A stretch of 64,000 nt of DNA from Nemertoderma westbladi. Its lineage: Eukaryota; Animalia; Xenacoelomorpha. The position numbers and the translations under genes were made by a program. Within the stretch, counting starts at the first letter, position 1. Each line of letters starts with the position of its first letter. The DNA lies in the NCBI GenBank assembly GCA_032718475.1, contig JAUCBJ010000896.1, forward strand, positions 1-64,000. The letters are read 5' to 3'. The notes beneath the pieces were generated by a model. It did no database searches. It was not told the DNA's origin and worked only from the letters and a program-made list of their open reading frames with translations. Below are positions 19,999-52,010 of the stretch, one piece after another.

Positions 19999-20074
19999 CA
20001 ATTTGCGTACTAAAGATAAATTACATAAATTTTTACTTCCAATGACCAAGAAAATATATTTGACCAAAGAGGAT

Positions 20075-26456: not shown

Positions 26457-27243
26457 CCGCTCCATGAAAACAGGATATTATAGTGCATAAAATATACGGT
26501 TTTCACCAATAATCAATCAAATTATAGAATACTTAGGGCGTACTTACATATTTACAAATTAAATTTCAAACAATACTTCCTTTCTACATAATGATTCGAT
26601 ACAAAATAATTACAAATTCAAACTTTACATATTTAAGGCTTTACTAAGTAAGTACAATATAAATCTAAATTAAATTCACCAATATAAATCTATTGCATCT
26701 CAATATTGCAAAATTCAAATAATTACAAATACAAATAAATGAAAATCATAAGAAAGGCTCGCGAGTCTTCCATCTACTATTGCATCTCAAATATTGCATA
26801 AATTCAAATAATTACAAATACTTTCGTGCCTAAATATAGATTGCATAAGTTCGGAATAATTACAAATATGAGTCTTTCTAAGTACAAAACTTTCTAACTA
26901 TAAAACTTTCTAAATACAAAATATAACGCTTTACAAATGAAACTATAAGAAAGGCCCACGAGTCTTCCATCTACTCTTACTTTCTATCTCACTGTAAATA
27001 CAAATACTGCTTATAAGATATATATTGCATAGTATTCGGAACAATATAAATTGCATAAGTTCGGAATAATCACAAATATAAAATATAAATCTTGCAAAAT
27101 ACAAATTCTTACTAAATATAAATCTTACTAAATACGAGTTCTTCCAGAATACAAAACTTACTAAATATAAAACATATAATTCAAATAAATCACAAATTCA
27201 CAAGAAAGGCTCACGAGTCTTCCGTCCACCCTTGCCCTCCCTT

Positions 27244-28708
27244 TTATTGCTTAGTAGATCGAGCCCTGCCTCGTCCTCGAAAACTGCGCACAGGTGACTT
27301 TGCTCGCGATATGGGACTCGTGGGGCGAGTCACTGGTTTTGTTTGGACGTTGGGAGACGGTGCGCCCGTTTCCTCACAAATTCGTCTATTTGGTATCCCG
27401 AAACCTCTACCGATTCCTCGTGACCGATCAGTTGTCACTACAGTTGGTAAAACGTCTGGGAACGCGCGGGAAGCGGACGACGCAGACCCAAGAGTAGCTT
27501 GCGCCCCCTTTTGATCAGCTGGTGTATGTCCCGATCCTCCTGTTGGTTCTCTAGGAAGCGATACCGTATCCCGAGTAATTCGAATAGTCGGCTCGACTCC
27601 CTTGCGTTCTTCTATATTAATAGACTTCTTTAATTGTTGGCTAACTTTCTGGACCCTTATGATCCTACCCTGCCCGTCCTCCCGAGGGTGACGTGCAGAC
27701 GGCGCAACCAGAGTGGCTGGTATATTTGTCGCCTCTAGGATCTCCTCTTCCTCGAATACGCTCGCTCGTATACGCCTATGATAGAACGCGGCTCGGTACG
27801 CCCATGCGACGTTTAACCAAGCTCCTTTATTCCGCTTTTCAGTTCGGAAACGATCAAATTCACCATACGTGATACGATTTACGACTTTCTGAAAATTCCA
27901 CGTGTTCTTTTTGTCCGGGTGAATCTGTAATAGATACTCGCGCACCACTCGGAATCCACTGTCGTGAGGCAAGATGTCGACTACCTCGATAAGTTCGTCA
28001 TATTGGGGCATAGCGGAGATGTATCCTTCCGACATCATCGTTTGGGGATTTACCGCCCAAAATCCAAGATGCGCCCTCATCGGAAATCGTCTTCTTTGTG
28101 CCGATACATGTTCATCGGCTAAATCTTCCCACTCATCGAACAGTTTTCTCACGAGTTTTACAGATTCGTGTTCATAAGGTATGTCTCTTAGTTGGCATTC
28201 AGATGCTCGATGCCCTTTTATATTGCATTAAGTACATTGAGCCATAAATCTCCAGCAAGTATAAAAGGTATGAGACCCTTGATCTCCACACCATCCACAG
28301 ATTAGTTGAGTCGTAGTAATGTGCTTTCCACTGCACTTTGTCATATGATGTCCAGCGACGCCACATTTACAACACATCGTATTGGCAGGGTACCACACTC
28401 GTTCATATATAAGATCTCCAATTGGTCGAGCGCTTCCTCCCACACTATAATCATAATCATCTGGATCTATGGGTTGGTAGGTTTCTGAAGGTTGTATACA
28501 AACTACAGCATCTGTTGCTTCAAGTTGTCGAATCTCCGTCTGAGATTTCTTCGGGAGGTTCCTTTCAATCTCAAGAAGTTCCTCTAAAGGATCGTCAGTG
28601 ATCGTAGTCGTTACTTCGAAATCATCACCAAGGTGACCGATAGGCGCGCGCGTCTGCCGTGATTCATCCATAACCTCCACGATACGTTCTCCTTCATAGG
28701 GTAACAAT
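27244..28708 (-). pseudogene. Accessory ORF, 3' part: triple CCHC zinc knuckle, conserved helical domain and basic tail; nonsense codon at 28228-28230
   Basis: CCKCGVAGHHMTKC, CGWCGDQGSHTFYTC, CT*CNIKGHRASEC; the duplicate copy has TAT (Tyr) at the stop position. Confidence 0.85.
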
Positions 28709-29642
28709 GTAAATGTTAGGGTTATGATTGATGGTGTTATGCGGGACTGATATACTGTATGTATATAGGTAGGAGGATTCCAAAGAGATACCGGTTACTA
28801 CCTAGGTCAGTACGGCAGGAGGTAGAGATAGATAGATTCAGTACAGCAGTACATTGTATTCGTCCGTCCTGCTTTACTTTATGCCGTCATACCATCAGTA
28901 TGGGACTGCAGGTTTATAGGAATATATAGATATATATGATCATCACTTATCTTTATTATATCTTCACGTTTACCTTGGGAACTAACAAATGGCGCTGCGA
29001 GTTGAAAGAAACCTATGGGCCTTGATACTGACTAACTGGACTACAGACCAGGGCCACGCATTGCTGCTTTGATTAGGCCTATTGATTTGATACTACATCA
29101 GCAGGACGGTAATTGCAACTACAGAACTACTGACCAAATTGCTACATCAGTACAGACCGGTACGGATCAACCGTACTGAGGTCACTGCTACAGCTTTTAC
29201 ATACGTACCGTCTCACCGTCGGTTGCTACCGCCACAACCAGACAACGATTACCGTTGCTTTCAAAACTTCTACCTACCATTCCAACCAGCCTAGACCGTA
29301 CATTCCTGCATTCGTTTTTTCTTACACCGGTATTACAAACCGGGCTGGCAGGAGGGAAATAGGCCAACCCTGCTACTCTAAGCCTACAGTCTGACAGTAA
29401 CTACAAACATTTCTACCAGTAAATTGCTATTGCAGTATTGTAACCCGTCTTTAAAAATATTCCAGTTATACTTGTTGACTGGAAGGAAAGAACCTGTATT
29501 CTTTGGCCATTCTGCCATTCGTTCATTTGTTCTACAATATGCAATACACCGGTACTCATTACTGATATACCTGTATACAGAGCAATACTTGTCAGACTAC
29601 TGGTAGGCCTAGATCTGCCAAATAAACATTTCTATACATACA

Positions 29643-32600
29643 ATGGCAGCGGCAGCCCCTGTATATACAAGGCTGTTTAAACCTTTCAAACAAACAGACA
29701 AATGGAGTGTCTATAAAACCATGATTTTGACAATTATAAATTCTGTTAGAATACCAGATAACAGTAACCCCGAAGAAGAAAAAAGGAAAATTTTAATTTC
29801 AAATTGTGGAACTGACCTCCTTGAAATAATAATAGATATTATTTACCCAGTAGACGTCAATGATGCTACATTTACAGTCATTATAGATGCTCTCAATGAT
29901 TATTTTCAATCATCCATAAACAAAGAGGCTGAAGTACGCAAATTTATTAGATTGCAGCAATTGCCTGCAGAATCTGTAACTGATTTTGTTAAACGTCTAC
30001 GCTCTGGGTCACGCTACTGTGAATTTGGAACAAGCCTGGACAGCAGGCTGAAAGAACAATTGCTTGCAGGCATAGCGAATGAATCTATAGCTACAGAATT
30101 GATGCGGTCAAAACCTACAGATTTTGCTACCGCGATTCAAGTTGCACGAAATTATGAAGAGGCATGCAATTTTGCAAAACGAGATATAGACGGGTTAACG
30201 GTACAAATGTCTAAACTAAACCCAAACTATGGGGCTTCTGAGCCGCATAATTATAAAAGTAGTAGTTTTTCACACATTCAATGCTTACGTTGTAATAAAA
30301 AAGGGCATAAATCTAACAGATGCAATGTGTCAGCAAGTATAACATGTCACTTTTGTGGAAATGCGGGCCATTTAGAAGTTGCGTGTTTGAAGAAAAGGGC
30401 CACATACACAAATTCAGGCAGTTTTAAACAGCAACGACCTGATAGACAGTTAAATACAAGTTCTAATAAAACTTGTAAATCATTTAGTAAAGCCCATGCA
30501 GTTGATGTTACAGATACAGGTGAAAGTACAGATGAAGAAGATATGTTTGAACAAATGAAAAGTTTTACTATAAAAGCAGAAATTGAAACCAATCAACTTA
30601 ATAAGGTAGATCCAATGACTACAATCATAACTGTAAATAACTCAAAGCCAATAATTTTTGAGCTTGACACAGGTGCACGTCATTCGGCCATTACATATTC
30701 AACATTAGAAAAGTATATACCAGAATTTAAGTTGGAAGAGAGTGATGCAACACTACGTGGTTACTGTGATGGTACAAAAAAGGTTCTAGGTCTTTGCCAT
30801 GTCACAGTACATATACCCAAATTGAACAAGACAGTTAATAATCTACCATTACTAGTGATCAATGGAAAAGTGAATACACCACTTTTTGGAAAACATTGGG
30901 TGGATACGTTTGGAGAAGGAGTGGATAAGCTAGTAGAAACTGCTCCGTTCATAGTGAAGTCCTTAGTACCCAGGAGTGCCTTAGAAACTATTCTTGAAAA
31001 TAATAGAAATGTATTTGATGGATTAGGATGTTACAATGGTACGCCAGCTAATGTTAGTTTGAAAGTGAATGCCCAGCCCAAGTTTTTAAAGTGTAGAACT
31101 GTCCCCCACGCATTTTGCGAGAAAGTGGAGTTGATATTACAGTCAGATATTGACAAGGGCAGCCTTCGTAAACCACTACCAAATGAAAACATTGAATGGG
31201 CTACCCCACTTGTTGTCGCAAAAAAACCTGGTTTAGATGACAAAATACGAGTCTGTGGGGATTATAAAAGTACATTAAATCCACATATCATAGATGATCC
31301 ATTTCCCTTACCTACATTTGATGAAATTGCAGCAAAACTGGAGGGTGGAGAAGAGTTTACAGTGATTGACCTAAGAGAAGCCTACCATCAGCTTCCTCTA
31401 GATCAGCATTCCCAACTACTTACGACTTTAAATACTCCACTTGGACTCTTAATACCAACTCGTGTTCCTTACGGGATAAAAACCGCAAGCACTAAGTGTT
31501 TAAAAGTTGTTGATGAGGTACTTCAAGAAGTCGACTGTAAAGAATCTGTTGCTGCTTACATGGATGAAATAATAATAACAGGTACAAATCGTCAGGATCA
31601 TTTAGAGAGACTTTGCAAAGTTCTCAAACAATTACAACAACGAAACATAACGTTACGGAGAGAAAAGTGTGCATTTTTACAGGATGAAGTCAAATTCTGC
31701 GGCCATGTCATTTCGAAACATGGAATTGCTCCTGATAAGGACAAAATTGAAGCAGTAGTGAAATTGCAGGAACCTTCAACTACCAAAGAGCTTCAGTCAG
31801 CTTTAGGATGTCAAAGTCGATTTTAACAATGTGATTTCTCAGAAGGATGGAACGACTTTGCATGGCTGCGATTACGCAATAAAGGGGGTCATGCTGTCAT
31901 GGGCGTTGTAACTTGAATTCGAGAAAACTATCTCGCTCACAAACGGATAAATGGTGTCTATAATTGAGGTCAATGAACTTGCTACCTAGGCCTATCTAAC
32001 GTGGGAGGTTATTATGATATCAAGCTTTAATTAGGTTATACCCAAGAGGTTTATAAATAACTCCAAAAACTCACCGGATTGATAATAATCGGCCCCCAAC
32101 CTAGGAGCTGTCTCCAGTAATAATTATTGTGGTTCAATAATATCGGCAATAGGTCTATAGCAATAAGCACCAACATTAACAACCAAACTGTAGGTCAACA
32201 TTACAGCATTAGAAATCTTGGAATATTGAAATATATCCGAAAATAAGGCGAGATAACAGTTTGTAGGGGTTTGGACCCGACAAACGCTGTGTTTCAGAAT
32301 TTCAAATGCCCCAATAATCCATCCTTGAGCTGTTCACGGTACAGACGGTACACGGTACCGCTATCACAAGTAAAGGTTGACTGACACGGTCAGACGGGCA
32401 ATTGAAAGTGATGACTGCAGACTGACACGGTCAGATGTACAAAGTATGTATAAAGTAATGAATACAGACTGACACGGTCAGACTGTACAAAGTATGTATA
32501 AAGTAATGAATACAGACTGACACAGTCAGACTGTAATTAATGATAATAAAAACACAGCGCCAATTTGCCTGTGGACCAACATCGGCAAACCGCCGTTGAC

Positions 32601-34751
32601 ATAGGATTCTTCAACTATTTGAGAAAGTTCATCCCGAATTATGCAGAAATGGCCCAACCCCTTTACAAAATGTTAGAGAAAGGAAATAAGTTTTTGTGGA
32701 CCAAAGTTGAAAGTAAGGCTTTTACCGACCTGAAACGGGCCATCACAAAATATACAATGCTTTGTTTTTTTGATACAAGAAAGGAAACACATCTAATTAC
32801 AGATGCTTCAGAACAGACAATATCTGCAATATTGTTACAGAAGAATACTGAAGGAAATCTATGCCCTATCGAATTCATGTCTGCTTCCCTATCACAATGT
32901 CAGAAGCGCTATTCACAACTTGATCGTGAGGCTCTTGCTATCATTAGTGGAATCCGGAAATTCCGAAATTATTTAATAGGTAGAAAATTCCATTTCATTA
33001 CCGACAACGAGCCTCTCCGACATATATTATCACCTTCAAAGGCATTGCCAGCTCTAGCAGTTTCTCGGCTTCAGCACTGGGCAATGGAGTTGTCATCCTA
33101 TGAATTCAGTATGTCATACATAAAGTCACAATTGAACCCATCCGATTGTTTTACTCGAATTTCGCAACCAGGTAACATTGTAGATGATGATATTGATATC
33201 AAATGCTTTGATATTCAAGAAGAGCAAAACATTCGAGAGATACCATTAAATCGAGATGGTTTAAAAGCAGCCACTGCTAATGATAACGTTTTAAAATTAA
33301 TACTACAGCATTTAAATTGTCCAAATTCCGGAATTGCAAAGGATAAAGCTCTTCATGATTACAAACCTTTAATGATTGAACTATCCAGTAATGATGGAAT
33401 TTTATGCAGAGGAACAGCAACAATAATCTCAATATCACTTCAGAAGAAAGTTCTCCAAGAGCTCCATGGACCACATACTTGCGCACGACGAATGAAAGAA
33501 ACTGCTCGTAATGTAGTTTGGTGGTTGGGAATCTCAAAAGATATAGAACTATATGTGAAAAGTTGTGAAAGTTGCCAGAGATGTGCGAAAGAGGTACATG
33601 TCACAACATGTCCAATGCCAGAACCAATAGAACCTTTTGAAAGAATACATCTTGACTTTGCAGAATACGAATCGACAATCTTCTTAGGAATAGAATGTGC
33701 CAAGACAAAATGGTCTCGAGTTATTGTTCCCAACAAAGCAACAGCAGCTATAGTCATCACTGAACTTCGGAAATTTTTCGCCGATTTCTCTATCCCTAAA
33801 ATTATCGTTGCAGATAATGGTCCCCAATTCCGAGCCGAAGAATTGGATGCTTTTTGCATTGCAAATGGCATTAACCGATGGCCCTCACCACCATATAAAC
33901 CGTCTTGTAATGGTGCAGCTGAGAGACTAGTGCAATCATTCAAATCGTCATTAAAGAAACAAGAAGATGATAATGAAAAATTATCTATGGCAGATCGTAT
34001 AAGTAGATTCATGTTGTTTGACCATAATGCAATAAAATCAAATGGGAAAACCCCCGCCGAGTTAGTGTTAGCGTACAAGCCAAAGACCCGATTAGATAGA
34101 CTGATCAACTTCCCAGCAAAGATCAAGGACCCAAAAAATAGTCCTTACGTTATTGGTGAAGCTGTATGGATACGTAATTATTCACGATTATCTGGGCACT
34201 ATGAGCGTTGGTTGCCTGGTAAAGTGGTTCAATACATCGGAAATAGAATTATCACGGTTGAAGTGTGCGGTGTCATTGTCCGTCGCCACATTGACCAAAT
34301 GAGACGCCGTTATAGTCCATTTGTAGGAACTTCACGCAGTATAGCGCCCCCCGAGATAACTAGTTCGCAACCCCTACCACCATATTACCATAGGTTAATA
34401 AATATTCCGGAAACAACTCCGGTCCATATTCAACGACGTTCTGAGAAGACACTTACCCAGATTCCACTGGAATGCACCTTCGAACCAACACAAGAACGGG
34501 TCGAGAGCTTTGTAACGCCCTGCAACAACCCACCATCACCTCATATTCAACGACGTTCTGAGAAGACACTTACCCAGATTCCACTGGAATGCACCTTCGA
34601 ACCAACACAAGAACGGGTCGAGAGCTTTGTAACGCCCTGCAACAACCCACCATCACCTACGGTACACAACCAGGGTGAACAACTCTCCAATGAACATCTA
34701 GCGAGATACCCACGACGGGCTCATAAGAAACCAAACTATTATGGATATTAA
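29643..34751 (+). CDS. Gypsy gag-pol polyprotein (1436 aa once the solo LTR and one TSD are removed)
   Basis: Two CCHC knuckles, protease FELDTGA, RT (IRVCGDYK, YMDE), RNase H (ITDAS, YSQLDREAL), integrase (HLDF, VADNGPQF, NGAAERLV); SALG/FFNY rejoins in frame. Confidence 0.92.
31809..32601. mobile_element. Solo LTR (793 bp) of an unrelated family inserted in Gypsy pol
   Basis: TGTCAA...TTGACA termini; TSD TAGGA at 31804-31808 and 32602-32606. Confidence 0.85.
34425..34658 (+). repeat. 117-bp in-frame tandem duplication in the Gypsy integrase tail
   Basis: HIQRRSEKTL...CNNPPSP occurs twice. Confidence 0.95.
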
Positions 34752-35114
34752 TATGGGAATAGGAGACTATAATAAGCCTGAACATAATACTAAAAGATTC
34801 ATATTGTGTGTTTTATATGAATTATTTTGTGGGGGGAAATTGTTAGGGTTATGATTGATGGTGTTATGCGGGACTGATATACTGTATGTACATAGGTAGG
34901 AGGATTCCAAGGAGATACCTGTTACTACCTAGGTCAGTACGGCAGGAGGTAGAGATAGATAGATTCAGTACAGCAGTACATTGTATTCGTCCGTCCTGCT
35001 TTACTTTATGCCGTCATACCATCAGTATGGGACTGCAGGTTTATAGGAATATATAGATATATATGATCATCACTTATCTTTATTATATCTTCACGTTTAC
35101 CTTGGGAACTAACA

Positions 35115-35671
35115 GTAAACATAGATGGTCTTTCGATAAGAGATCCCGCACAGCGTAGATACACGTCTCGAAATATACTAAATCCTGCTCGAGTAAAGGC
35201 ATTACACTGAGCGTCGGAGTTGTAGAAGGGTTCAAGAAATCGTCTAAACACGTCGGTATGAATTCTCCCTTCCATGTAGAACGTATGATCTTCTCCGAGA
35301 CAAAGTGGATGTCTTTTAAGAGTCCGAGACACAATGTCGGCGATTAAGCAAACATTCACTGACGACTCTATTGCTAAATAATATTGTAGGACCGCTCTTG
35401 GAGGTGACGTAATAGCCCAATACACGCATCCTCTCCATTTGAGCTGCGATTCAAACTCACTCATATCTGGAGTATCACCTTCTCCATAAGTCTCAATATA
35501 CTTAGCTCTCTTACTTTCCTTATAATCCCAATTGAATAACAGGTAGGAAATGTATCCAGTTCCAGTCTTCTGAGTATTATACTCACGAAAATATCCCTGT
35601 TCTATAGACCACAAGATAAGGGGTCGAGTGTCGACGTAAGGTGTCGGTAGTCGGTCATCGCTGTCCGTCAT
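35115..35671 (-). CDS. Accessory ORF, middle part (unknown function), cut by the Gypsy insertion
   Basis: Removing the Gypsy element and one GTAAA joins ...ERPSMFT to LLPYEGERIV... in frame. Confidence 0.75.
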
Positions 35672-35734
35672 GCCGGCGAAGTCGCTAATTAAGTCCTCCC
35701 TTACTCCTGATCCAATCTTTACAACAGTTTTATC

Positions 35735-37375
35735 TCAAATCATATTTCTTACCATCTTCGGTAGCATTCTAGCATCGATATTACAAGCTTGGTCCATCTT
35801 CTTTACTATGTCAGTGATGAGATGGTGTCGCTTTGTATTTACTGGGGGTATCGGCATTCGTTTGTCGCTCCTCTGTCTACTGAAAACGTGCAAGACTCCG
35901 TCCGCCGCTCTAATTTGTATAGTCTTAGAAGTTAAACTCTGTTGATGACTGCCGCCCTCATTATCGTAAAACATGTAACCATTTTCCTGAAACGATCTAA
36001 ACGTTCTATTCCATTCGTCCAACAATTCTTCCGAAGGTTGCCAAATCTTCTCTATGTCCTTATCATCTTCGAAACGAATAACCTTACCTCGCCAATCTGC
36101 GGCAATATCTTTATCCGACTCGAAGGTTCCAGTTCCAATCCATAAACGAATCGTTCTGGTTAAATATCCTTTCAAATTACTCGGAGCTATATCAGCACCA
36201 GCTCTATCCAGTTCCTTAAAGTCTTGAATATGAGGTGGAATGTTATACACGACCTTTTGAGTAATATGTCTACGTAAATCATATATCTTACTCATATCGC
36301 TAAAAACAACTGCAGGAAGGAACTCCAAGTTTGAAATGATTTCTGGATGATCCACGATGGGTATTTCGTACGTCGTATCCTGTCGGACTGGTATACTAAT
36401 AGAAAAATTGAGTGTCGTACTCAATGGTTTCGTAGTCGAAGTACTATATGGTTGCATTTCTCTTGTCCTCTCCGGGGATGCAATCTGTAGTCTCTGAATA
36501 ACGTTTTGAGCAAAGTTTATGCTCTCGAAAACTTCCGGTGTCATCTCCTTAGCTGGAGTTTGATCGTGTGACGTCCAATGGTAAGGTAGGCTCGCGAGTC
36601 TTCCGCCCCATTCTTCCATCTCACCTTTCTCGAAAGCCTTGTAGGCTCTGTATAGGCTAAGAGCTTCTTTCTTTTCGCGGGTTGACTGATTCGCCTCGTC
36701 CAGCGTAAGTTCAAATGCATCGGGTTCAACAACCTTAGGTGGGTAAACAACAGTTTCTCCCGCCTTTGGTCCAGTCATAGCAAACGAATGATATGGATTT
36801 GATAAAGGATACCCTCCTTCCTGGTAGCGTAGTTGTTGATGGTTCGAACACCTCGCCAATATCGGTTCAGGATTTTCCTTATTCAAACGCATCGGAATCG
36901 CATTTCGTTGTTCGCGCATACAAGAACCGCATTGATAATAAAGTTTATAAACTGAAAATGCTTCCTTGGTTTCTCTATCGTCCCCTCGTGTTCGTCTGTA
37001 AAGATGCATTCCATCAAATTCATCGCGTACCGCGGGCATAGGTTCGTGCGCCTTCAGGTATTGCATAGTATGATACAAACGACTAATTTCAGTATCGGGG
37101 TCTTCGCTAATGTCTCCCGTATCACACAAAGCGTCGTACGGGTAAAGTTCATTGAAGGTTTTGCGTAAACTTTCGATTCTTTCATTTAATGCGTTTTGCC
37201 TTCTCTTTAATACATTTGAGTCATATTTAGTTCTTGCGAGTTTTGCCGTACTTTCTGATAATTCTTTTATACCAAATATAGTATAGTCTTTGGCTCCAAA
37301 TCTCTCAAATGGCGCTGCTGCTTCCTCTTGGATATCATATCCCCATCTCGGCTCTCCATGTATCTCCTTCTCCAT
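35735..37375 (-). CDS. Accessory ORF, 5' part (unknown function; first ATG at 37375); possible CxxC...CxxH metal site
   Basis: Long sense ORF downstream of pol; in frame with the next part across one TGA; no evident signal peptide or transmembrane segment. Confidence 0.75.
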   Translation of the reverse strand: MEKEIHGEPRWGYDIQEEAAAPFERFGAKDYTIFGIKELSESTAKLARTKYDSNVLKRRQNALNERIESLRKTFNELYPYDALCDTGDISEDPDTEISRLYHTMQYLKAHEPMPAVRDEFDGMHLYRRTRGDDRETKEAFSVYKLYYQCGSCMREQRNAIPMRLNKENPEPILARCSNHQQLRYQEGGYPLSNPYHSFAMTGPKAGETVVYPPKVVEPDAFELTLDEANQSTREKKEALSLYRAYKAFEKGEMEEWGGRLASLPYHWTSHDQTPAKEMTPEVFESINFAQNVIQRLQIASPERTREMQPYSTSTTKPLSTTLNFSISIPVRQDTTYEIPIVDHPEIISNLEFLPAVVFSDMSKIYDLRRHITQKVVYNIPPHIQDFKELDRAGADIAPSNLKGYLTRTIRLWIGTGTFESDKDIAADWRGKVIRFEDDKDIEKIWQPSEELLDEWNRTFRSFQENGYMFYDNEGGSHQQSLTSKTIQIRAADGVLHVFSRQRSDKRMPIPPVNTKRHHLITDIVKKMDQACNIDARMLPKMVRNMI

Positions 37376-38036
37376 AATTAGAGGTGTAGTTACATAATCA
37401 TTACTACTAGAGGGAATACAACAGAGTTTATAGTTAGTTGTGAGGAGACGTGAGAGTTTCGTCTGCCTTTTGGGCTTCGACAACGCTCTAACCTCCTACC
37501 CATAGCCTAAGATCTAGGGTTTCTTTAATGACACGCTGCTTCTTATCTAAAATTTTTTGCTGAAATAAAAACGAATTTGGGCTAAACTGGCTGTGAGTCT
37601 AAAATACTCACCTTTTGATCCCAAACTATTATCAGAAAATAAGCAATCAAGAATTAGTAATAAATATAGGGGAGTCTATTTTGACGTAACTTATTGAAAC
37701 AAGACCGTGTAAAATTTAATTAAAATTTTAAGAAAGGCTCGCAAGTCTTCCTCTCTTGTTTCTCTAATTTTTAAGTTCCACCCGACTGTACCCTGAAATC
37801 TATTCACTGGAGAAAATTTTGAAAATTTTTCAAATCCAAATGGATTGTCTAAAATTTCGAAAATGTCTCAATATTGTGAGTTCCAAGTAGAATTCCATTT
37901 CTTATACCTACAAATCCCGCTCCTATGTGACACATAAGGGTACTACCCTCAATGTTCACATATAAAGACAATGGAATTCTACCGCTGTCCTTACTACGGT
38001 GTACAGGTACGTGGAAATCTATTTGTAAACTCCTAA

Positions 38037-41000
38037 TTATTTACTAATATTTGTTGGAGATTTGTAGTCTCCAGACTCGTTACGAGTCTCTTCAAGAAGT
38101 ACGAGACGTTGAGTCGGTCTGTCAACTGTACGACCGTCAATTGTCCGTACCGTCACAGTTCTTGTCACTCCATCCATAGATGGATGTGTGGCTAAAATTA
38201 CACCTGTTATCCAGAAGCGTCTTTTTAGATTCACTTCCGCTAACAGCACGTGATCTCCCGGCTTTAATGCCCGGGTGTTATTGTACCAGTTTGTTCTGGC
38301 AGAAATAGAGGGCAAATAATGGTTTTGCCATATCTCCCAGAATTTGTTAGCTAGTAGTTGCGTGATTTTCCACGCTTTTCTACCGTAGCTATCGCCTTCC
38401 ATTGGAAAAGAAATAGGCGTCAAAGTAGTCGGTGCCTGCATTAGCAGGTGTGCAGGTGTTAAAGCAAACTGGGATTGTTTGTCATCGGGTACTAATACTA
38501 TTGGTCTAGTATTTAGTATTGCCTCGATTTCAACAAACAATGTGGTCAATTGGTCGTCTGTCAATATGTGGTTTACTGGAATGACCTTTGCCATTGCCGT
38601 TTTGATAGATCTAATCAATCTCTCCCAGACTCCGCCTCTCCATGGACTATCTGGAGGATTAAACTTCCAAATAATCTTGTAAGGACGTAGTTCGTTTGAG
38701 ATTTGATCGTGATCTAATTTCTTAAAGGCTCTAGCTATTTCATTTCGAGCACCAACAAAGTTTGTCCCTTGGTCTGAGTACAAGCATTTCACTAGTCCGC
38801 GTCTAGCGATAAATCGCCGCAATGCTAGTATAAACGCGTTGGTGGAAAGATCCATCACACGTTCGATATGAACTGCCCTACTGGACATACATGTGAAAAT
38901 CAGTCCCCAGCGTTTTACTAGTATACGTCCACGTTTCGTATGTATGGGACCAAAGCAATCAATTCCAGTCTCTGTAAAAGGTGGTCTGAATGCTTGAAGT
39001 CGTGCTTGTGGAAGTTCACTCATTTCTTGGGTACCTATTCTAGAATGTACCTTTTTACAAATAATACACGTACGTGTCACTGAACTTAACGCTTTACTGG
39101 GTCTAATCAATACAAATCTTGTACGTAAGTAGGAAAGACAGTGGTGTCTTCCAGCGTGTTTCAGATGTAAATGTGCGTCCAGTATCATTGCACGTTGTAA
39201 TTCGTGATGCTGCGGTATTATTATTGGGTACCTAAAGTTCGTGTTAAAGTCAATGTTTTGAAGCCGAGATTTATGACAAATTAAGCCATTATAAATTATC
39301 GGACTCCAACTCAATATTGGTGACGACTTGATTGGTTGACCTTGATTTATAGATGTGAATTCGCGTGCGAAGTATCGCAGTTGGTAATGGCGAATTAATT
39401 TAATTTCACACCTGTCAATCTCAGTCAATGTAAGTCGACGTGTAAAGTCGCATTTGCCTTTAACGTATTGTACAAAACGTACAATCCACGCTAATTTTCG
39501 GCAAGCATTTGTCCAAGAATCTGTTAGGTTTACAATACGGTCGACGTAAGTATTTGTGACGTCATCAGGTAAGTCAATGGAGAATTTGGAAGGTTTTGAT
39601 TTACTAGAAGGTCCCACGGGTCCGCCGGTAAGTATTCCCTTGTTGACTGTTGATCCGTCCGGGTCTACAAGTAATTCGTCCTTCCTTGTTTTCTTACCTT
39701 GATTGTCAGTACTTTGTAAGTCGATCGTTAATGGTGGTTTGAACTCTATGGGGTCACTGGGTTTCGGTAAACTTAATTTTCTGCCGATATTAATCCCAGG
39801 GCTCACCATAGGTTGCAAGTTTGGTATGTCTCTTGAGCGCAAAGTAACACCTGTATTTACATTAGCGTAGGTACTACCCACATCTGTAATACATGAGGTT
39901 TCACTGTGCTCATGGTTGCTCAAGTGTGTCAAATTTGGTAGTTTGTCAATACAAGGCTGCTCCAATAGGGAAACTGCGGCTTTACTATTTGTCAATATGT
40001 TACTAGTGTCTGGTAGAACATTTTGTGACATGTCTGGTAAAATGTTTCGCGGAACATCCGGCGAAATATCTAGTGACGTGTCTGGCAAAACGTCTGGTTG
40101 ACCGTCTAGTAACGCGTCTGGTGATACGTCTGGTAACGTGTCTGGTTGACCGTCTGGCGATATGTCTGGTGTAGAAAGGCTCGCAAGTCTTCCGTTCTTG
40201 ACTTTTGAAGTTATCGCCTTCCATTTCGCCTTCGGTTTTTTCTTAAGTTTAGCCGCCGTCTTTTTCTTTGCTTTCCCTTTCTTTGGTTTTTTAATTTCGG
40301 CGTCTTTAGGGATAGTGTTAGACTTGTTGTCGTATAGTGGCGGCCAATGTAGTGTTGATCTTTGCAAGAATTGTGGTCCGTGCTGCCAAAATTCTTTGTT
40401 CTCCGATTTACAGAATTCCTCAGGCATCATTCCTCGCGACGCAATATCGGCTGGGTTTTGTGGTCCGGGACAATGTCGCCAATCTTCCTTTATTGAACGG
40501 TCTAGAATTTCTGCGCGACGGTTAGCTACGAATGTCTTGAATTCGAGTGTGTCGTTGTTTATGTAAAATAAAACCAACGTCGCGTCAGTCCAATAAAATA
40601 TCTGTAAACTTGACTGTAGTTCCGTCTGTATAAGGTTCACGATTGTGGTTGACAGGGTTGCTGCTTGTAGCTCAGCGCGTGGTGTCGTCATATACTTAGT
40701 AGGCATAGTCTTAGCCTTAGAGGTAATGAGCGAAACATCAAACTCTTCTGAGTCTACTTGTCTGCGCAAGTACGCTGCCACTCCAAAGCCGTTGTCACTG
40801 GCGTCGGAAAAACAATGTAATTCCAAGTTGTCGGGAAATGTCGTTTGTAATAAGTACACTCTGGGTATGGAATAATCCTCTAGTGAAGATAATTCTGCCT
40901 CCCAGGTTTTCCATAAATCCACTTGTTCTGATGAGATCGGCTCGTCCCATGTCAGTCCATCCTTCCAAATACTGCGCATATAGATTCTGGCTTGCAGTAT

Positions 41001-42539
41001 TATTGGACTGATGAATCCTAATGGATCGAATAATCGACTCAATTTTGACAAGCAGGATCTCTTTGTCAGAGTGTTTTCTTGAGTGTCCAGTCTCACCTTC
41101 ACTCGAAAGTTGTCCGTGTTTGGGTCCCAAAAGAGCCCCAACACCTTGGTCGTCGGTAGTGGTTCAAACTCTAGGTCTATTTCACCACCTCCACGCTCAG
41201 TCGTTCCGAATGAGTCTACCAATTCGGCACTGTTTGAGGCGAATTTGGTGAGGTTAAAACCTCCGCCCGCTAAGCAGTCCCGTAATTGATGTGCTACTGT
41301 TATAGCACGTTCTACTGTGTCACAACTCTGTAAACCATCGTCCACGTAAAAGTCACGTTCTACGATCTTGATTATCTCTGGGTCATATATATGTTTCTGA
41401 TCCCTAGCGGCTTGCTTTAGGGCGTACATCGTACAGTTTGGGCTGTCCCTGGCACCGAAAACGCGAACTTGCATTTGGTAAGTCGCTGGTGGTAGACCTA
41501 AGTCTCCTTCCGTGTACCAGAGGAACCTCAAACTGTCTCTGTCTCGCTCTAACGCTCTCACTTGGTGAAACATCGCTTCAACGTCACAAGTAAAGGCTAC
41601 CTGGCGTTGACGGAAGCGCATAATCACCCCCATAAGATAATTATTCATGCTCGGTCCATCCATCAACTCGCTATTGAGGGACATTCCCTCAAACAGAGCC
41701 GCACAGTCATTGACTACACGTACTTTGTCTGGTTTGTCGGGATGTCTCACGTAGTGATGTGGTAAGTAGTATGTCTGGTCTGTCACAATCTCTGGGTTAG
41801 TCATTCTGATGGCGTATCCCTTTGTTAAATACGTCTCCATCTGAGTATTATACTGCAGATGGGCTTTCTCGTCCTTTAATAGATGTTGTCGTATTGAGTG
41901 TAAACGTCTTAAGGCTAGCGGATAGTTATTTATGAGTTTAGGACGTTGGTTACGCCATAGCATCCCTACCTCATAATGTCCGTCTTTCGTCTGGCGGATA
42001 GTATCTTCCATGATCTTCAAAGATTGTTTCTCTTGTTCCGACATACATGGATCGTAGCTACCAGGTTCAGCTGTATCTTGTTCTAACCACCTGATAGTCT
42101 TCTCCGTTAATTCTTTGTCCAATGCAGCTTGTTCCACTTGATGATTTCTTAATGCGTTATCATCGATATCGACGGGCATTGTTGAGGTTATTGGTGTAGG
42201 TAGACTCGCAAGCCTTCCGGCGTTATCATCTGTCGTCGATGGAATCTCTGGCTGACTCGTCTTCTCCCCAAGTTCTAAACTCACCTGGTGGATTAGCTGC
42301 TCCTTGTGACTTATCATACTAGCTACACACGTCGTATCATGTTTTGTCGAATGTAGTGTAGTATAGTCTATGTCGTGTGAAAAGGAATGAGTCGAAGTTG
42401 TAGTTAATAAACTACATGTACTTTGTATATCGTCTTCCTCGTCACTTATATCCAGTGTGCGCACAGGCGCTCGAGTATACCACCCTATCGGCGTTCTACA
42501 GGCGTATGCGTTTCCAGCTACGACTGCCGATGGTCTGGT
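38037..42539 (-). CDS. BEL/Pao pol: RT, RNase H, integrase
   Basis: YYLPHH..KVRVVNDC, DVEAMFHQV, RDFYVDD, LHCFSDAS, TPRAELQAA, NPADIASRG, TGIDCFGP, YSDQGTNF, GGVWERLI, LTPAHLL; in frame with the protease ORF across one TAA (42540-42542). Confidence 0.95.
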   Translation of the reverse strand, partial: TRPSAVVAGNAYACRTPIGWYTRAPVRTLDISDEEDDIQSTCSLLTTTSTHSFSHDIDYTTLHSTKHDTTCVASMISHKEQLIHQVSLELGEKTSQPEIPSTTDDNAGRLASLPTPITSTMPVDIDDNALRNHQVEQAALDKELTEKTIRWLEQDTAEPGSYDPCMSEQEKQSLKIMEDTIRQTKDGHYEVGMLWRNQRPKLINNYPLALRRLHSIRQHLLKDEKAHLQYNTQMETYLTKGYAIRMTNPEIVTDQTYYLPHHYVRHPDKPDKVRVVNDCAALFEGMSLNSELMDGPSMNNYLMGVIMRFRQRQVAFTCDVEAMFHQVRALERDRDSLRFLWYTEGDLGLPPATYQMQVRVFGARDSPNCTMYALKQAARDQKHIYDPEIIKIVERDFYVDDGLQSCDTVERAITVAHQLRDCLAGGGFNLTKFASNSAELVDSFGTTERGGGEIDLEFEPLPTTKVLGLFWDPNTDNFRVKVRLDTQENTLTKRSCLSKLSRLFDPLGFISPIILQARIYMRSIWKDGLTWDEPISSEQVDLWKTWEAELSSLEDYSIPRVYLLQTTFPDNLELHCFSDASDNGFGVAAYLRRQVDSEEFDVSLITSKAKTMPTKYMTTPRAELQAATLSTTIVNLIQTELQSSLQIFYWTDATLVLFYINNDTLEFKTFVANRRAEILDRSIKEDWRHCPGPQNPADIASRGMMPEEFCKSENKEFWQHGPQFLQRSTLHWPPLYDNKSNTIPKDAEIKKPKKGKAKKKTAAKLKKKPKAKWKAITSKVKNGRLASLSTPDISPDGQPDTLPDVSPDALLDGQPDVLPDTSLDISPDVPRNILPDMSQNVLPDTSNILTNSKAAVSLLEQPCIDKLPNLTHLSNHEHSETSCITDVGSTYANVNTGVTLRSRDIPNLQPMVSPGINIGRKLSLPKPSDPIEFKPPLTIDLQSTDNQGKKTRKDELLVDPDGSTVNKGILTGGPVGPSSKSKPSKFSIDLPDDVTNTYVDRIVNLTDSWTNACRKLAWIVRFVQYVKGKCDFTRRLTLTEIDRCEIKLIRHYQLRYFAREFTSINQGQPIKSSPILSWSPIIYNGLICHKSRLQNIDFNTNFRYPIIIPQHHELQRAMILDAHLHLKHAGRHHCLSYLRTRFVLIRPSKALSSVTRTCIICKKVHSRIGTQEMSELPQARLQAFRPPFTETGIDCFGPIHTKRGRILVKRWGLIFTCMSSRAVHIERVMDLSTNAFILALRRFIARRGLVKCLYSDQGTNFVGARNEIARAFKKLDHDQISNELRPYKIIWKFNPPDSPWRGGVWERLIRSIKTAMAKVIPVNHILTDDQLTTLFVEIEAILNTRPIVLVPDDKQSQFALTPAHLLMQAPTTLTPISFPMEGDSYGRKAWKITQLLANKFWEIWQNHYLPSISARTNWYNNTRALKPGDHVLLAEVNLKRRFWITGVILATHPSMDGVTRTVTVRTIDGRTVDRPTQRLVLLEETRNESGDYKSPTNISK

Positions 42540-45500
42540 TTACCACACTTGATGTAGGTTGAATTGATCTGTCCCGATCAGCATTGCTACCGACCTATAG
42601 TTGACAGGACATTCAGGTACACCAAGGTGTCTGAAGTACTTACGGTCCTCCAAGGATTGTTCTGGGACAGGACCTAGTAGGTTACTAAAGTCCTTGGTTG
42701 CCGCAAAAGTCAAATCCTTAAAGGGCAACAAAGACCTCTCCTTTTCGCTGTGTTGCGATTTCGGAAGGAGAGTGTCTAAGTTTAACTTAACTCGTGTCAC
42801 TGGTATTGCACGTTGTCCATGCATACTACTTACGGTGTAACTGACGTTCTTACCTTGTTGGAGATCCGTCACAACATCAGCTACTTTCTCATCCACATAA
42901 CTATGTGATGAGGCTGAATCCAGGATAGCGTAGATCCTTTTGCTCCCTTTGGTGCCAGTAATCTTGACAGGAATTATACTAAACCCCTTTAGTTGATCAG
43001 GCGTCAGATGCGCAATCGATGGTTGTTTGTCTCCAGTATCAAAGTAAACGTCGTCGTCTTCCGACTCTTCATCCGACGATCCTGATTGTTCCGAGAAGCA
43101 ATCTCTAATGTGCGTCACGAAAGTCGGTGTTGTTTTCGACTCTCGACCCTTATATGCTGTGTTGCATCTTGCTGCCGCTTCCGGGTGTTCCCTGGTGAAG
43201 CGTTTGGTCGGCGTATGACTGTCTGTGTGGAGCAAACCGTCATGGTTGCGTCCACACGAAGGACAGGTGTCTGTATTTGGGCAGTCTTTACGGACATGTC
43301 CATGTAGTGTACACCGCCAACAAGAGTCCAATGGCCGTATTTGTAGTCGTCGTTCCTCCGAGTTCAATTCGCGGAATAGTCGACAACCTCTCAGTTTATG
43401 GCTAGTATGTCGTTTACCTAGCCGTTCGCAATATTGGCAACCGCTGAAATCCACAGTTAGCTGTTGTCTGGTCTGTTTGGTCCCAATTGGTGCGGATACC
43501 TTATTATTGTCCGAAAATTGTCGGGTGTCGGTCGATGTTGCGTAAGTAACCGTCTTGGTGGATGTTGTTTGGGGTTTTTGTCGGTTCGAGGATGGTAATG
43601 TTATTCCTTCCGCCACGATATGTTGGTCCGTGTAGTTCGAACGCGTCTCGACTACTGCCTCTCTGGATATCAGTAAGTAGACGTCTTCCAACTTCAAGAA
43701 TCCGCCCCTCTCTTCTCGCTGATATTCTATCTTTCGCCACTCCCGACGAAGTCGATGGTGTAATCTTCCTATTATTTTCAATAGGACTGTCGGAGTGTTT
43801 GCGTAGTCAAGTTGTCCAATCGAGCGTAGTGTAGTAATGGCGTTCTTAATCTCGTCAGCTAATTTCAGTAAGTCAACGGGTTTTGTTATAGCCCCCCCCC
43901 TTACAGAGTTCTTCTATCACTGACTTAGCCATACTAACGGTGCCTCCGTAAATCGAAGTTAAGCGATCATACGCTAGTTCGAAGGCATCTGGTACACCGA
44001 CAAAGGTCTCCGCTAGACGTTTCGGTTCTCCCGTCAGCGTTTGTAGCAGGTAGTTGAATTTCTCCCTCGATGTAAAGGCGCATGCTGCTATTTGTGTCTC
44101 GATGTAGTCCACAAAGGTGTGCCAATGTTTTGAATTACCTGAAAACTTCGGTGGTTGTTGCACCGGTAGCCCTTGTCTTGCTGCGAATTTCGCTATCTCC
44201 TCGGCCACGTTCAAAGTTTTGCGTCCTTGGTTGGCAATCGAGTTGATGTTCTCTCGTCTTGGCGCTTTTCCTTGATACGAGGTGTTTCTCGAGGGTTGCT
44301 TTCTTTGTTGCTTCGGGTGTCTAGAGTGTTTCCTCTAAACGTTCCTCTATCTGGGCCAACTTGTCTACAACTGGGCGCATTATTTCGGCGAGTTGTTGCG
44401 TACTAATTGCGTCCGTTGGTTGTAACGCTTTCTGTGTTGGTGTATTTTGTGGAGGATTGTCGATAAAGGAGTTATCTGAACGCTCACGTTTATATTCGTC
44501 GGCCGCTCCTGTTCTAAATACCTCACGTTTCGGGTAATCCGATTCACTCGAAGTACTACTGTCACCTGGATACGGTGGTCGACGTGCTCGTGTCCGTTGC
44601 GTTGTTCGAATTCTAACATTCCGTTTCGGAACATCGTCCACTGGTCTCCGTTGTTCGGTAGGCTCGCGAGTCTTCCTCGAAGTCGTAGATTGCGATGTAA
44701 ACTGGTTAAACGGTTGCGTTTCCACTGGTCTCCGTTGTTCGGTAGGCTCACAAGTCTTCCTCGAAGTCGTAGATTGCGATGTAAACTGAATCGGTGGTCG
44801 AGTAACAGCGTTTGAATCCAAAGGCCTTGTAGGTCTAAACACAGTTGGGTAAGCGTAGTGTGTAACGGGTTTAGGTGTCGAAGGTGGACTCACCTGTTTA
44901 GTCGTCAGTAATGCAGGTGCGGTCAACAAACTACTACGATCTGTAATCGGCGGGTTACTTACCTTGACTTTTAGAATGGGCGACGACGTTGCTCTTGGCT
45001 GCACAAACTTGTCCGGAATAACAAACCTGTGTTCCGTCGCACCATGGATAGGAGAAATGTTACTACTACCCGCAATCGAAACAGGTTCTTTAGTCGTAAT
45101 TGGTGCAAACATAGGAGTTACTTGAGGGAATCTTTGACATAAGTCTTTAACTAATTGTCTTTCTCGCCCAGGTGCCCCTACACTTCCTTCCTTCATTCGT
45201 TCCTGAATTTGGCGGTGCCTTACCTCTATCTGGTCCAAATCATGTCCGTCACGAGATCTCATCGATCGATCGCGGGCTAGAAGATCCAGATTTTCCTTGG
45301 CTTCGGCTTCTATAGTGCTGTTGTTGCTGTCTGGAAATTTCTGACGTCACTATACTTACCTCGCCAATTTCGCTACGAATACTCACTAACGATTGGTCCA
45401 GTATTCCCGGTGCCGATTCGATTTGTACGGGCGAAGTTTCCCTCGTATATTCTGGCACGGTTTCCAAATCGCCGACGTCTTCGCCGCACATACGTAAGTG

Positions 45501-46151
45501 GTCCGTCAGATGTTTCAATTGTCCATCCAGTCGGTACAGTTCCTGTTCTTCCTTGGGCTGAAATAATTCGTCCGAAACTGACTCACCTAACAACTGGTCC
45601 GCTTGTTCCTGTTGTATCTGCCTAATCGTCGACTTAAACTGAATCAGTTTCTCTCTAGCGATCATTAGTTTCTCGAGGATTCTAAGTTGAGTATCCACGT
45701 CCTGTCTCTGTCTAGCTAGATCTTGTAGACCAATTAGATTATCTACGGACTTATGTACTCTACTTTGTACTCTAACCTGGAGGGTGTAGAACTCAAACCG
45801 AGACATCGGAGCGGTCAACTCGTCTAATATGCGTTGGCCTTCTCCAATACTCCTGGTAATATGCGCCATGTAGCCGCCGACGCTTCTAACCACACTCTCC
45901 TGGCTTCCTACTGAACTTACCATGTCCGTTTCCCTGTATCTAGGTTGCGGGACCGTTAGAAAGTCCTCGGTCCTGCCGTCGCCTCGTACTACGGCATCCG
46001 GTACTCCCGTTGGATGTACTGGTGACGCACACGGTGTAGGTTTGGTAGGCTCGCGAGTCTTCCCCTGTGGTTCTTCCGCTGCTGACTTATCTCCGTCACA
46101 TGAGTCATAGTTGGTAGGTGTATTCTTCGTATAGTCTTGTTTGTCACTCAT
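42540..46151 (-). pseudogene. BEL/Pao gag-protease, frameshifted (pieces 46151-45249, 45262-44321, 44214-43873, 43781-42540)
   Basis: PPKFSGNSKHWHTF..EKFNYL capsid-like motif; triple knuckle CQYC..H..C, CWRC..H..C, CPSC..H..LLH; protease YAILDSAS. Confidence 0.88.
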
Positions 46152-46949
46152 TTCGGTAGTTGTAAGTCAAGTAAAGTGAGTGTCAAAGTATCGAATTTAC
46201 CGTATTTATATCTAACGGTACTAATTACAGTCATATAAAATTAGCCTACCGGCCGATTTTATAGCAAATGGATAAAATTAGCCTAGACGGCCAATTTTAC
46301 AGCAAATAAATGTCACGGTATAAGTATATAATAAAATTAGCCTAACGGCCAATTTTATAACAAATAAATCGGATAACGATATACGTTATCAAAATATAAA
46401 TTTAACACAAATAATACGGACTAATTCAGCAATAAACAAAGAAATCGTACGGAATGCATAAATACTTGAGACAGTGGAACCCACAATAATTTTAACTAAT
46501 ATGGTAATGCCTAACTGATTAATGCAACTTTTCAAACTCACCCACTCCAATAATTCTCCAGAAAAAACAGATTCCCAGATACAAACCGGACGTGAACCTT
46601 TCCGTTTCCAACGCTGCGGACGAAGTGCGATTTTCCCAACCAAAATTGTTGAGTTATCTATCTCCCAAACTCGTGAAACACGGTCTTGCTCCCGTTACAG
46701 TCTAGAAATGAGGTCTGAATCCTGAAAAACAAAAGAGTTAGGTTTTACTTTTACGAAAATTTTGTACCGGTACAATATGGTATTTAAACCCTTTTAAACA
46801 CCGGTATTCAATTCCAAAATGTTTTACACGCGGTTCAAATCAAATTTTATTTCAAAAAATTAGCACTTAGCTAATCAAATATAAATTTTTACCTCAAAAT
46901 ACAAAATTTTCAAATAACTTTAGTCCTACCGAACCGTAGTTCAGTAAAA

Positions 46950-51785: not shown

Positions 51786-51798
51786 TAATAGTAATAGG

Positions 51799-52010
51799 AA
51801 AACAATTTGCACCTACTAGGATTCGAACTCAATACACACTACATATAATTTCCAACGCTCTACCGACTGAGCTACTGAACCACTTGACTAATCATCGTAC
51901 AAATAGATATAGCAAATACAAATGAGGACTTAATGTAATCTTTAGCAAAGTTAATTCGAATAAAATAAAAATTTTGAAAATCCACAGCGTTTAGAGAATA
52001 TAATTCTATA
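51799..52010 (-). repeat. Partial family 1 LTR (first 212 bp) forming the true element end
   Basis: Matches 26245-26456 and is followed by TSD AGAGA. Confidence 0.9.

Follow-up and report, generated by a model that had tools for sequence, protein, structure and literature searches.

The window, the whole 64,000-nt stretch of Nemertoderma westbladi DNA that was analysed, contains a giant animal BEL/Pao LTR retrotransposon of high copy number with LTRs of 1,921 bp. This element, referred to here as family 1, is the host of a repeated 20-nt motif. It lies next to a related family, family 2. The main features are the following:

24536..26456, minus strand: 3' LTR of family 1, 1921 bp, then the TCTCT target-site duplication, in a satellite
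27244..37375, minus strand: accessory ORF, about 1240 codons without the Gypsy insertion, broken here by two stops and the Gypsy
28714..35114, plus strand: nested Gypsy element with 274-bp LTRs and a 5-bp target-site duplication, 0 motif copies
37407..46541, minus strand: putative GT-AG intron of 9135 nt, donor GG/GTGAGT in the leader, acceptor preceded by a CTAAC that resembles a branch point and by a pyrimidine tract
38037..46151, minus strand: BEL/Pao gag-pol, five ORFs in this broken copy (DUF1759, three Gag knuckles, protease region, RT, Peptidase_A17, integrase, DUF5641)
46961..48881, minus strand: LTR upstream of gag, 1921 bp, TAT...ATA ends, 0 motif copies
48882..52010, minus strand: what is left of a tandem copy (first 212 bp of the LTR, a deletion, a 5' piece of the Gypsy, 3' part of the accessory ORF, 3' UTR)
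54163..55592, minus strand: family 2 accessory ORF, frameshifted
56644..57291, minus strand: family 2 repeated dyad motif, 9 copies

The assignment to BEL/Pao is based on a Pao-type RT/RNase H, a DUF1759 Gag, a DUF5641 domain and the order PR-RT-RH-IN, together with three Gag zinc knuckles, the LTRs and a 5-bp target-site duplication (TCTCT). Pfam matches were obtained to PF05380 (1.4e-42), PF18701 (1.1e-20) and PF03564 (9.6e-9), and a protein search returned 1468 matches with a top identity of 42%, PF05380 being present in all among the matches listed. LTR elements usually carry TG...CA termini and a TGG primer site, neither of which is strictly defining. Both are absent here: all three LTR starts read TAT, both ends read ATA and no TGG follows the LTR. 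A search for tRNA genes found none, and Rfam covariance models applied to 24-64 kb gave two matches (E 2.3 and 3.8), far under gathering scores and neither on a motif copy.

Eleven copies of a 20-nt dyad

A sequence-only reading of this DNA had reported ten copies of a quasi-palindrome in family 1. All ten are present and eight match the pattern it gave exactly; the copy at 26949 has one mismatch, which had gone unflagged, and that at 42199, flagged as a variant, has two. The count was nevertheless one short, as an eleventh copy lies at 28639. It carries a symmetric double change at positions 8/13 and three mismatches to that pattern, and its weight-matrix score is 20.2, the next unrelated site in the window scoring 7.1. 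From 5' to 3' on the element the copies are:

46044..46063, minus strand: copy 1, first gag ORF, about 90 nt past the ATG, KTREPT phase
44741..44760, minus strand: copy 2, gag, twin of 44657 within an 84-bp tandem duplication
44657..44676, minus strand: copy 3, gag, KTREPT phase
42199..42218, either strand: copy 4, protease-RT linker, GRLASL phase, positions 6/15 swapped
40174..40193, minus strand: copy 5, lineage-specific insertion between RNase H and integrase, GRLASL phase
37732..37751, minus strand: copy 6, in the non-coding stretch that separates pol from the accessory ORF, within the putative intron
36585..36604, minus strand: copy 7, accessory ORF, GRLASL phase
28639..28658, minus strand: copy 8, newly found, 3' part of the accessory ORF, QTRAPI phase, duplicate at 51062
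27204..27223, minus strand: copy 9, 3' UTR, directly past the accessory stop, duplicate at 49629
26949..26968, minus strand: copy 10, degenerate tandem unit of the 3' UTR, duplicate at 49374
26752..26771, minus strand: copy 11, degenerate tandem unit of the 3' UTR, duplicate at 49177

The duplicates at 49177, 49374 and 49629, already reported, were found again; the duplicate copies come from the tandem-copy remnant, which TCTCT precedes. On both strands and with up to three mismatches, the window holds 21 matches against 0.04 per shuffled window, and 300 shuffles of the 16-kb element background gave five. No copy occurs in the LTR, the leader, the nested Gypsy, the neighbouring elements or elsewhere outside 26.7-51.1 kb. 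The reported absence from the Gypsy is thus borne out, as is, within the window, the specificity for the family. A common orientation had been claimed for all copies and is firm for 10 of 11; copy 42199 has two mismatches on either strand alike. A 9-nt deletion at this copy in runs X1, X2 and X4 (among the 40 of 1134 differences listed) would make it read better inverted, provided no unlisted change adjoins.

Conservation is 2 bits up to the ends of the dyad and at background level immediately beyond them, as measured on ten of the eleven copies with the 84-bp twin 44741 left out. The unit is a 20-mer of two-fold symmetry with no conserved flank; a few flanking letters are common to some copies. 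All 22 half-sites match G-R-H-A-G-R-C-B-Y-R, with four letters invariant. In the YGYG centre the G at positions 10 and 12 is invariant, and UGCG is found in three of the eleven copies. The self-complementary core CTCGCGAG emphasized previously is intact in only four of them, and the variation, said to fall mostly in a loop, divides the copies into two classes at positions 18-19. An A.C mismatch at 6/15 is retained in 10 of 11.

Four copies are non-coding, three are read in the GRLASL phase and four in a KTREPT-type phase (7/11 coding). Both frames agree with the sequence-only reading, and the spread over non-coding sequence and two phases supports its proposal of a constraint at the nucleotide level. 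In Gag-Pol, copies occur only in non-conserved linkers, where 0-5 of 73 BEL homologues align. Spacing is fairly even, with gaps of 1147-2458 nt (CV 0.30, p about 0.002 in a post hoc test on 8 sites and 7 gaps, for which the tandem pair was collapsed to one site and the 3' UTR triplet to another). Two groups of copies were made by local tandem duplication, and no other dispersed 12-mer family was found in the element. Across four runs, none of 21 variable sites of the 3' UTR falls inside its three motifs (p = 0.08), whose variants are absent from the listed differences to these runs. Between the duplicates, 8 of 14 transitions are in CpG context, and two C>T changes in copy 44741 may be post-insertion CpG decay. 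CpG decay was rejected as the source of all variants, family-level transitions being in CpG context in 8 of 32 cases against a background of 0.22. A BANP/Kaiso-type site, which we take to be the 10-bp palindrome TCTCGCGAGA, was also rejected: its 8-bp core occurs in 4 of 11 copies, with both flanking letters different in all.

Folding and pairing of the copies

The sense-strand hairpin proposed in the sequence-only reading did not withstand folding analysis. Its predicted energy is -0.4 to -2.0 kcal/mol in nine of the eleven copies (full range -0.4 to -4.9), and it folds no better than shuffles (of five sense copies tested, four have a z-score above 0). With 30-nt flanks the pairing probability is at most 0.14 in every copy, and an in-context hairpin is predicted in at most one. 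The antisense strand folds better than the sense strand, and covariation does not rise above shuffles on either. A stand-alone sense hairpin was rejected on these energies, pairing probabilities and shuffles, and so were GNRA-loop or anticodon-loop registers, since slid registers pair only 33-57% of cells. Stem-loops with covarying stems on the genomic strand, as expected of dispersed packaging signals, were not found among the copies.

Duplexes between copies average -19.5 kcal/mol, copy 42199 being the best partner of all the others (-26 to -32 kcal/mol). On the sense strand, 14 of the 20 positions are paired whichever of the 121 copy pairs is taken, the central four included; on the antisense strand 2.73 of the 4 central positions pair. 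Where only one side varies, the change on the sense strand is without exception C>U facing G or A>G facing U. This wobble asymmetry is based on four classes of change that are independent of each other (a chance of 1 in 16), and two of the changes may be CpG decay. The two nearest copies are predicted to fold into each other, and the three 3' UTR copies have no predicted mutual pairing in cis (probability at most 0.07). Overall, copy-to-copy pairing fits the variation better than a hairpin does, and a double-stranded DNA site fits almost as well.

A candidate spliced accessory protein and its family 2 counterpart

The joint 46541-37407 is present in one contig of run X4 (depth 210.9, short side 25 letters) and in none of X1 and X2. 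It falls on the canonical donor, branch and acceptor and connects the leader to a point 31 nt before the accessory ATG, which suggests splicing; the accessory protein would then probably be made from spliced RNA, as are Rev and CERV. Run X4 is guessed to be DNA, in which case the joint may be an integrated spliced copy. Six of the eleven motif copies lie in the putative intron and the other five would stay in the spliced subgenomic RNA.

The accessory ORF encodes three CCHC knuckles near 28374-28200. In the duplicate their reading frame is open, with the knuckles at 50799, 50724 and 50661 and the knuckle domain at 50146-50838. They are nucleocapsid-type, with weak matches to RSV NC (E 0.4) and MLV NC (E 1.4), under Pfam cut-offs. 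The ORF pieces have no family match at E 0.01. No homologues were found in word-indexed searches or among 1.84 billion representatives, blanks that are no proof of novelty; a pattern search gave 58 matches with 0 confirmed, and the Atlas no usable match. AlphaFold gave a mean pLDDT of 35.9 for the knuckle domain alone. The protein, already proposed as candidate reader of the motif, retains that role.

In family 2, the accessory ORF is homologous to the family 1 knuckle-plus-helical domain (E 2e-5), and its nine dyad copies form one array, all on the sense strand, of a sequence that differs from the family 1 motif. A scan of viral contigs for the family 1 motif gave no locus and one of metagenome contigs 26 loci with one exact match each. 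None of the 26 has a tblastn match to this pol or a blastn match to the window, and they were treated as chance. Rfam on eight of them gave two matches, both away from the motif.

What reads the dyad

Our best explanation, which falls somewhat short of an even chance, treats the dyad as a conserved signal that one BEL/Pao family carries at even spacing and as an RNA docking site for the three-knuckle accessory protein of this family. The protein as reader, RNA as substrate and the function are deduced, as is splicing at the joint, and binding is putative. The accessory protein, probably made from spliced RNA, would dock on copies along the element RNA and, in the manner of CERV and Rev, license export of the long unspliced RNA or protect it. 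What is read could be the sequence (the invariant G10 and G12 in YGYG) or a duplex of about 20 bp between two copies; as a free-standing hairpin the motif is predicted not to work. Sharp limits, three reading contexts, linker placement, spacing, wobble-type variation, the GT-AG joint and the knuckles count in favour of RNA docking. Against it count the weak hairpin, missing covariation, the 6/15 mismatch, the ambiguity of 42199, the lack of cis pairing in the 3' UTR and the five of eleven copies in spliced RNA, whereby the motif does not mark unspliced RNA alone. Among the closest known systems is CERV of Cer1 in C. elegans, a novel cysteine-rich accessory protein made from spliced RNA and needed for export of unspliced RNA (PMC10309623). 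Family 1 resembles Cer1 and HIV Rev/RRE in having an LTR-element accessory protein, putatively from spliced RNA, with a cysteine-rich module (PMC10309623). In contrast to Cer1 CERV, no sequence likeness was found and the export role is here a proposal. A term search of the CERV paper found no 'response element', 'stem-loop' or 'cis-acting', and it thus names no cis-motif; the HIV RRE is a single structured region (PMC10309623), unlike the 11 dispersed 20-mers, of which 6 lie in the putative intron and 5 elsewhere, with no stable local fold. The knuckles of HIV NC hold the G residues at positions 2 and 4 of a loop, and a UGCG loop is the target of RSV NC; HIV-1 SL2/SL3 and the UGCG of RSV SL-C are stable hairpins of the 5' leader (PMC7599994, PMC5035970), and UGCG mutation left Gag specificity unreduced (PMC5035970). 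The dyad likewise has four central bases with G at 2 and 4, UGCG in 3/11 and CCHC knuckles on the element, but its hairpin is unstable and its copies lie outside the leader. The SPRE of endogenous retroviruses is another short, sequence-defined RNA element of LTR elements without conserved predicted structure; it is described as a 17-nt core, 3'-biased, about one per family (393 matches/378 families), not a dyad and of unknown reader (PMC8579622).

CCHC knuckles are a class that binds single-stranded nucleic acid, and as the sole recognisable module of the accessory protein they speak against a double-stranded DNA site. Such a site, bound by a dimer of the accessory protein or of a host factor and keeping the whole element open or unsilenced like VANC motifs or Sirevirus boxes, was not considered in the sequence-only reading; it is nearly as likely as RNA docking. 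The 22 matching half-sites, the exact dyad limits, the near absence of covariation, the lack of a stable sense hairpin, and the ambiguous 42199, where the 9-nt deletion would favour an inverted reading, all accord with it. Family 1 also lacks CpG depletion (o/e 1.04-1.21 against 0.72 in the nested Gypsy). The left and right halves however differ in how they vary, with a bias that preserves G.U pairs on sense RNA, and no copy lies in the 1.9-kb LTR or the leader, where promoter control would be expected, an absence that could be chance. VANC21 and VANC6 motifs of VANDAL plant DNA transposons are 9-bp, non-palindromic and mainly non-coding, with dsDNA binding shown (PMC5735166, PMC6719617). They share with the dyad, here within the window, an element-encoded accessory protein, a family-specific many-copy motif in one-orientation, partly tandem arrays, and a different motif in a related family (PMC5735166, PMC6719617). 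The differences are a 20-nt dyad, 7/11 coding copies, a CCHC protein without VANC homology at E 0.01 and an animal retrotransposon. Sirevirus RM boxes of plant Copia, with a CGG-CCG core and clustered in LTRs and upstream of env, are also high-copy palindromes whose flanks diverge, and their host is likewise an LTR retrotransposon that has an additional ORF (PMC2829016); the dyad has no copy in the LTR, no CGG-CCG core and is spread through gag-pol.

It appears improbable that the copies are dispersed signals for packaging or dimer linkage, which the Gag knuckles would read or which would pair two genome copies directly and compact an unusually long genomic RNA. Sense-strand self-complementarity through the centre, duplexes near -20 kcal/mol, even spacing and three Gag knuckles would suit such signals, and dimerisation or copy-to-copy pairing, which may still hold, fits the variation. 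Selective packaging is weakened because five of the eleven copies remain in spliced subgenomic RNA, and the leader, the place of retroviral packaging and dimer signals, has no copy. The many short, degenerate, capsid-read stem-loops along ssRNA virus genomes (PMC6281560) show that dispersed signals exist, whereas the dyad is near-invariant without covariation, a fixity that pure pairing would not require. Functionless by-products, in which template switching would have dispersed a quasi-palindrome and repeated recombination between copies would have kept it uniform, are very unlikely: tolerant linkers, the few shared flanking letters and the two tandem-duplicated groups are in keeping with them, but recombination tracts would not stop at the dyad limits 11 times, and even spacing and the lack of any other dispersed 12-mer family also oppose them. 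A constraint on the peptide GRLASLP/S, which we take to be an RxxS-type phosphorylation motif, is hardly credible. The three GRLASL copies differ at synonymous positions only within the hexapeptide, yet 8/11 copies are non-coding or in another phase, the pattern occurs in 0 of 120 BEL homologues, and the non-coding copies largely refute a peptide-only constraint.

A wider proposal, of much the same probability as RNA docking, is a complex-retrovirus-like control that evolved in an animal BEL/Pao lineage, in which a spliced three-knuckle protein without known relatives may read a family-specific dyad evenly spaced through the whole element, coding sequence included. Sister families would pair homologous proteins with their own motifs, and this code of self-recognition would coat the element so that it is exported, protected or unsilenced. 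For few elements is it known by what means long retrotransposon RNAs with introns evade silencing and retention in the nucleus. Here one element combines a candidate reader, a small knuckle domain, with a candidate site of 20 nt that has sharp limits, and the second protein-motif pair in the adjoining family 2 provides a specificity control. An RNA-level system like Rev and CERV, or a DNA-level one like VANC, would if true be new for BEL/Pao, as far as the literature was searched.

Structure of the host element and its accessory gene

Family 1, the carrier of the motif, is a minus-strand BEL/Pao LTR retrotransposon. Its parts in the window are:

24536-26456 and 46961-48881, minus strand: LTRs of 1921 bp with TAT...ATA ends
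Start 37375, end 27244, minus strand: accessory gene, with three CCHC knuckles
28714-35114: nested Gypsy, interrupting the long extra ORF downstream of pol
48882-52010: deleted tandem remnant

The block 24536-52010 is inserted in satellite and flanked by TCTCT. This clean 5-bp duplication fixes the LTR ends, which start with TAT (26456, 48881, 52010) and finish with ATA (24536, 46961) instead of TG...CA. A TGG primer site is absent after the LTR. The copy in the window is disrupted by stops, frameshifts and the Gypsy insertion. Four public sequencing runs yield contigs that cover the element; their summed depth is very high in X1 and X2, and some contig pieces are about 80% identical to it; the family is thus abundant and comprises diverged subfamilies.

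Within U3, tRNA-like A and B boxes (TAGCTCAGTCGG ... GAGTTCGAATCC) are found on the minus strand at 26260-26335, 48685-48760 and 51815-51890, with a TATA-like box some 240 nt downstream; neither ARAGORN nor Rfam calls them. In Pol, an insertion of about 250 residues (39500-40290) separates RNase H from integrase; it contains a lysine-rich run as well as PD-rich repeats and is missing from 73 BEL homologues. Most of RT/RNase H (40260-42167) is bypassed in contigs of X1 and X2, a weak observation given short sides of 18-32 letters; both motif copies flanking this region fall outside the skipped part. Between the duplicates 24536-29362 and 46961-51785, 8 of 14 transitions affect a CpG, against a background of 0.20 (p 0.002), and family 1 overall is not CpG-depleted; the broken locus appears methylated and the active family not. 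Higher-order repeats of 456 bp and the 24/31/55-bp satellite, the element's insertion target, occur among positions 4300-17400, 19990-24535 and 52011-52410, and an RT fragment at 21378-22133.

The accessory CCHC knuckles score below the Pfam cut-off, and several kinds of database search found no homologue of the protein. In one contig of X4, a run presumed to be DNA, positions 37406 and 46542 meet at a joint with GT-AG ends in the orientation of the element (depth 210.9); the joint has zero depth in X1, X2 and X5, and its short side is 25 letters. The donor (GG/GTGAGT) lies in the leader, and the acceptor, preceded by CTAAC and a pyrimidine tract, 31 nt before the accessory ATG. We infer that the accessory ORF is expressed from a spliced subgenomic RNA, caught as such or in the form of an integrated copy. 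The intron holds six motif copies; the other five are outside. A second pair of splice signals, a donor (AAG/GTGAGT) and an acceptor separated by about 50 nt, precedes the accessory ORF (37560-37612, minus strand) and represents a possible short intron or alternative splice.

Distribution of the motif

All positions listed by the sequence-only reading hold the motif. Eight of the ten non-duplicate copies match its pattern exactly, those at 26949 and 42199 having one and two mismatches. A weight matrix built from these ten identified an additional copy at 28639 (duplicate 51062), scoring 20.2 versus 7.1 for the next-best site; by chance, such matches are expected at 0.04 per shuffled window and arose five times in 300 shuffles of element background. 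Duplicate copies are non-independent because 48882-52010 is a tandem remnant. The reported absence from the nested Gypsy was borne out, and the LTR, leader and other elements likewise contain no copy. A local AT-rich repeat aside, the motif is the element's only dispersed 12-mer family. Single matches in 26 metagenome contigs, none of them a BEL element, were discarded as apparent chance hits. Two X2 contigs carry the motif followed by about 133 letters unlike the window (at 26771), a motif copy in a diverged flank, probably of another subfamily.

Constraint on the motif and its possible readers

Each of the 20 positions carries 1-2 bits of conservation, compared with no more than 0.84 in the flanks. 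Independence from reading frame was upheld: four copies are non-coding, three encode GRLASL and four K/QTxxPx, and a constrained peptide is the least credible explanation. The gag-pol copies are confined to stretches in which no more than 5 of the 73 long BEL homologues can be aligned. Once local tandem copies are collapsed, seven inter-copy gaps measure 1147-2458 nt (CV 0.30), an even spacing for which a post hoc test gives p 0.002 against random placement and 0.0002 under restriction to tolerant regions. All 21 variable sites of the 3' UTR lie outside its three motifs (p 0.08), which is only suggestive of sparing from variation. Judged by its sequence, the motif is a real, selected, family-specific cis-element of an unusual BEL/Pao element, and functionless copies are very unlikely.

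The sense-RNA hairpin proposed earlier was not supported. It is a weak fold, with -0.4 to -2.0 kcal/mol for 9 of 11 copies, and four of the five copies tested fold no better than shuffles. Its pairing probability does not exceed 0.14 in any of the 11 when 30-nt flanks are included, and rises above 0.15 in one copy with 80-nt flanks. The antisense strand folds better, and neither strand shows covariation above shuffles. Single-sided changes at 2/19, 8/13, 9/12 and 10/11 all leave a G.U pair on the sense strand but disrupt pairing on the antisense (four classes, 1 in 16 by chance; the two changes of copy 44741 may be CpG decay). Those at 9/12 and 10/11 are pairable solely between copies, and the central four positions pair in 121 of 121 copy pairs; a packaging or dimer linkage signal read by Gag is improbable. 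Close behind our preferred reading comes a DNA site in a role like that of VANC, the VANDAL transposon proteins: all 22 half-sites have four invariant letters in common, the limits of conservation coincide with those of the dyad, and copy 42199 is equally good read inverted. Template switching yields copies in direct orientation. VANC DNA motifs are co-oriented too, according to the accessible parts of PMC5735166 and PMC6719617, and for both reasons the single orientation is not decisive between RNA and DNA. We tentatively prefer, by analogy, docking sites on the element RNA for the accessory protein, whose nucleocapsid-type knuckles are the candidate reader. Of the four central positions, the second and the fourth are always G, as in NC-bound retroviral loops (PMC7599994 and PMC5035970, in part). 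The regulator would probably come from spliced RNA, as in Cer1 (PMC10309623, in part), and the sites would cover the very long element RNA evenly.

Neighbouring elements and known systems

The neighbouring family 2 has an ORF homologous to the family 1 accessory ORF (E 2e-5) and a different dyad, in nine copies forming a single array. It is arranged (52881-62380) as LTR, gag/protease-like ORFs, motif array, LTR, accessory ORF and diverged LTR; placed between two LTRs, the accessory ORF looks like a subgenomic copy that was retrotransposed, and the basic stretches at its end (PPAKRYR, KKRPR) resemble nuclear localisation signals. In a third element, a perfect 5-bp hairpin, GGTAC-GTA-GTACC, is repeated 16 times in tandem downstream of where pol ends (62797-63392); the hairpin also occurs once inside the family 2 array, at 56946.

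No Rfam family matches the motif, and no BEL/Pao element with a comparable motif or accessory protein was found in the literature, subscription papers and repeat databases being thinly covered. As far as the accessible parts of the sources go, the motif differs from the repeated RM boxes of Sireviruses in core and location (PMC2829016), and from SPRE, an endogenous-retrovirus RNA element, in number and symmetry (PMC8579622). By analogy, the motif system would work like CERV/Rev, CERV being the Cer1 accessory protein, or like VANC, yet would belong to neither.
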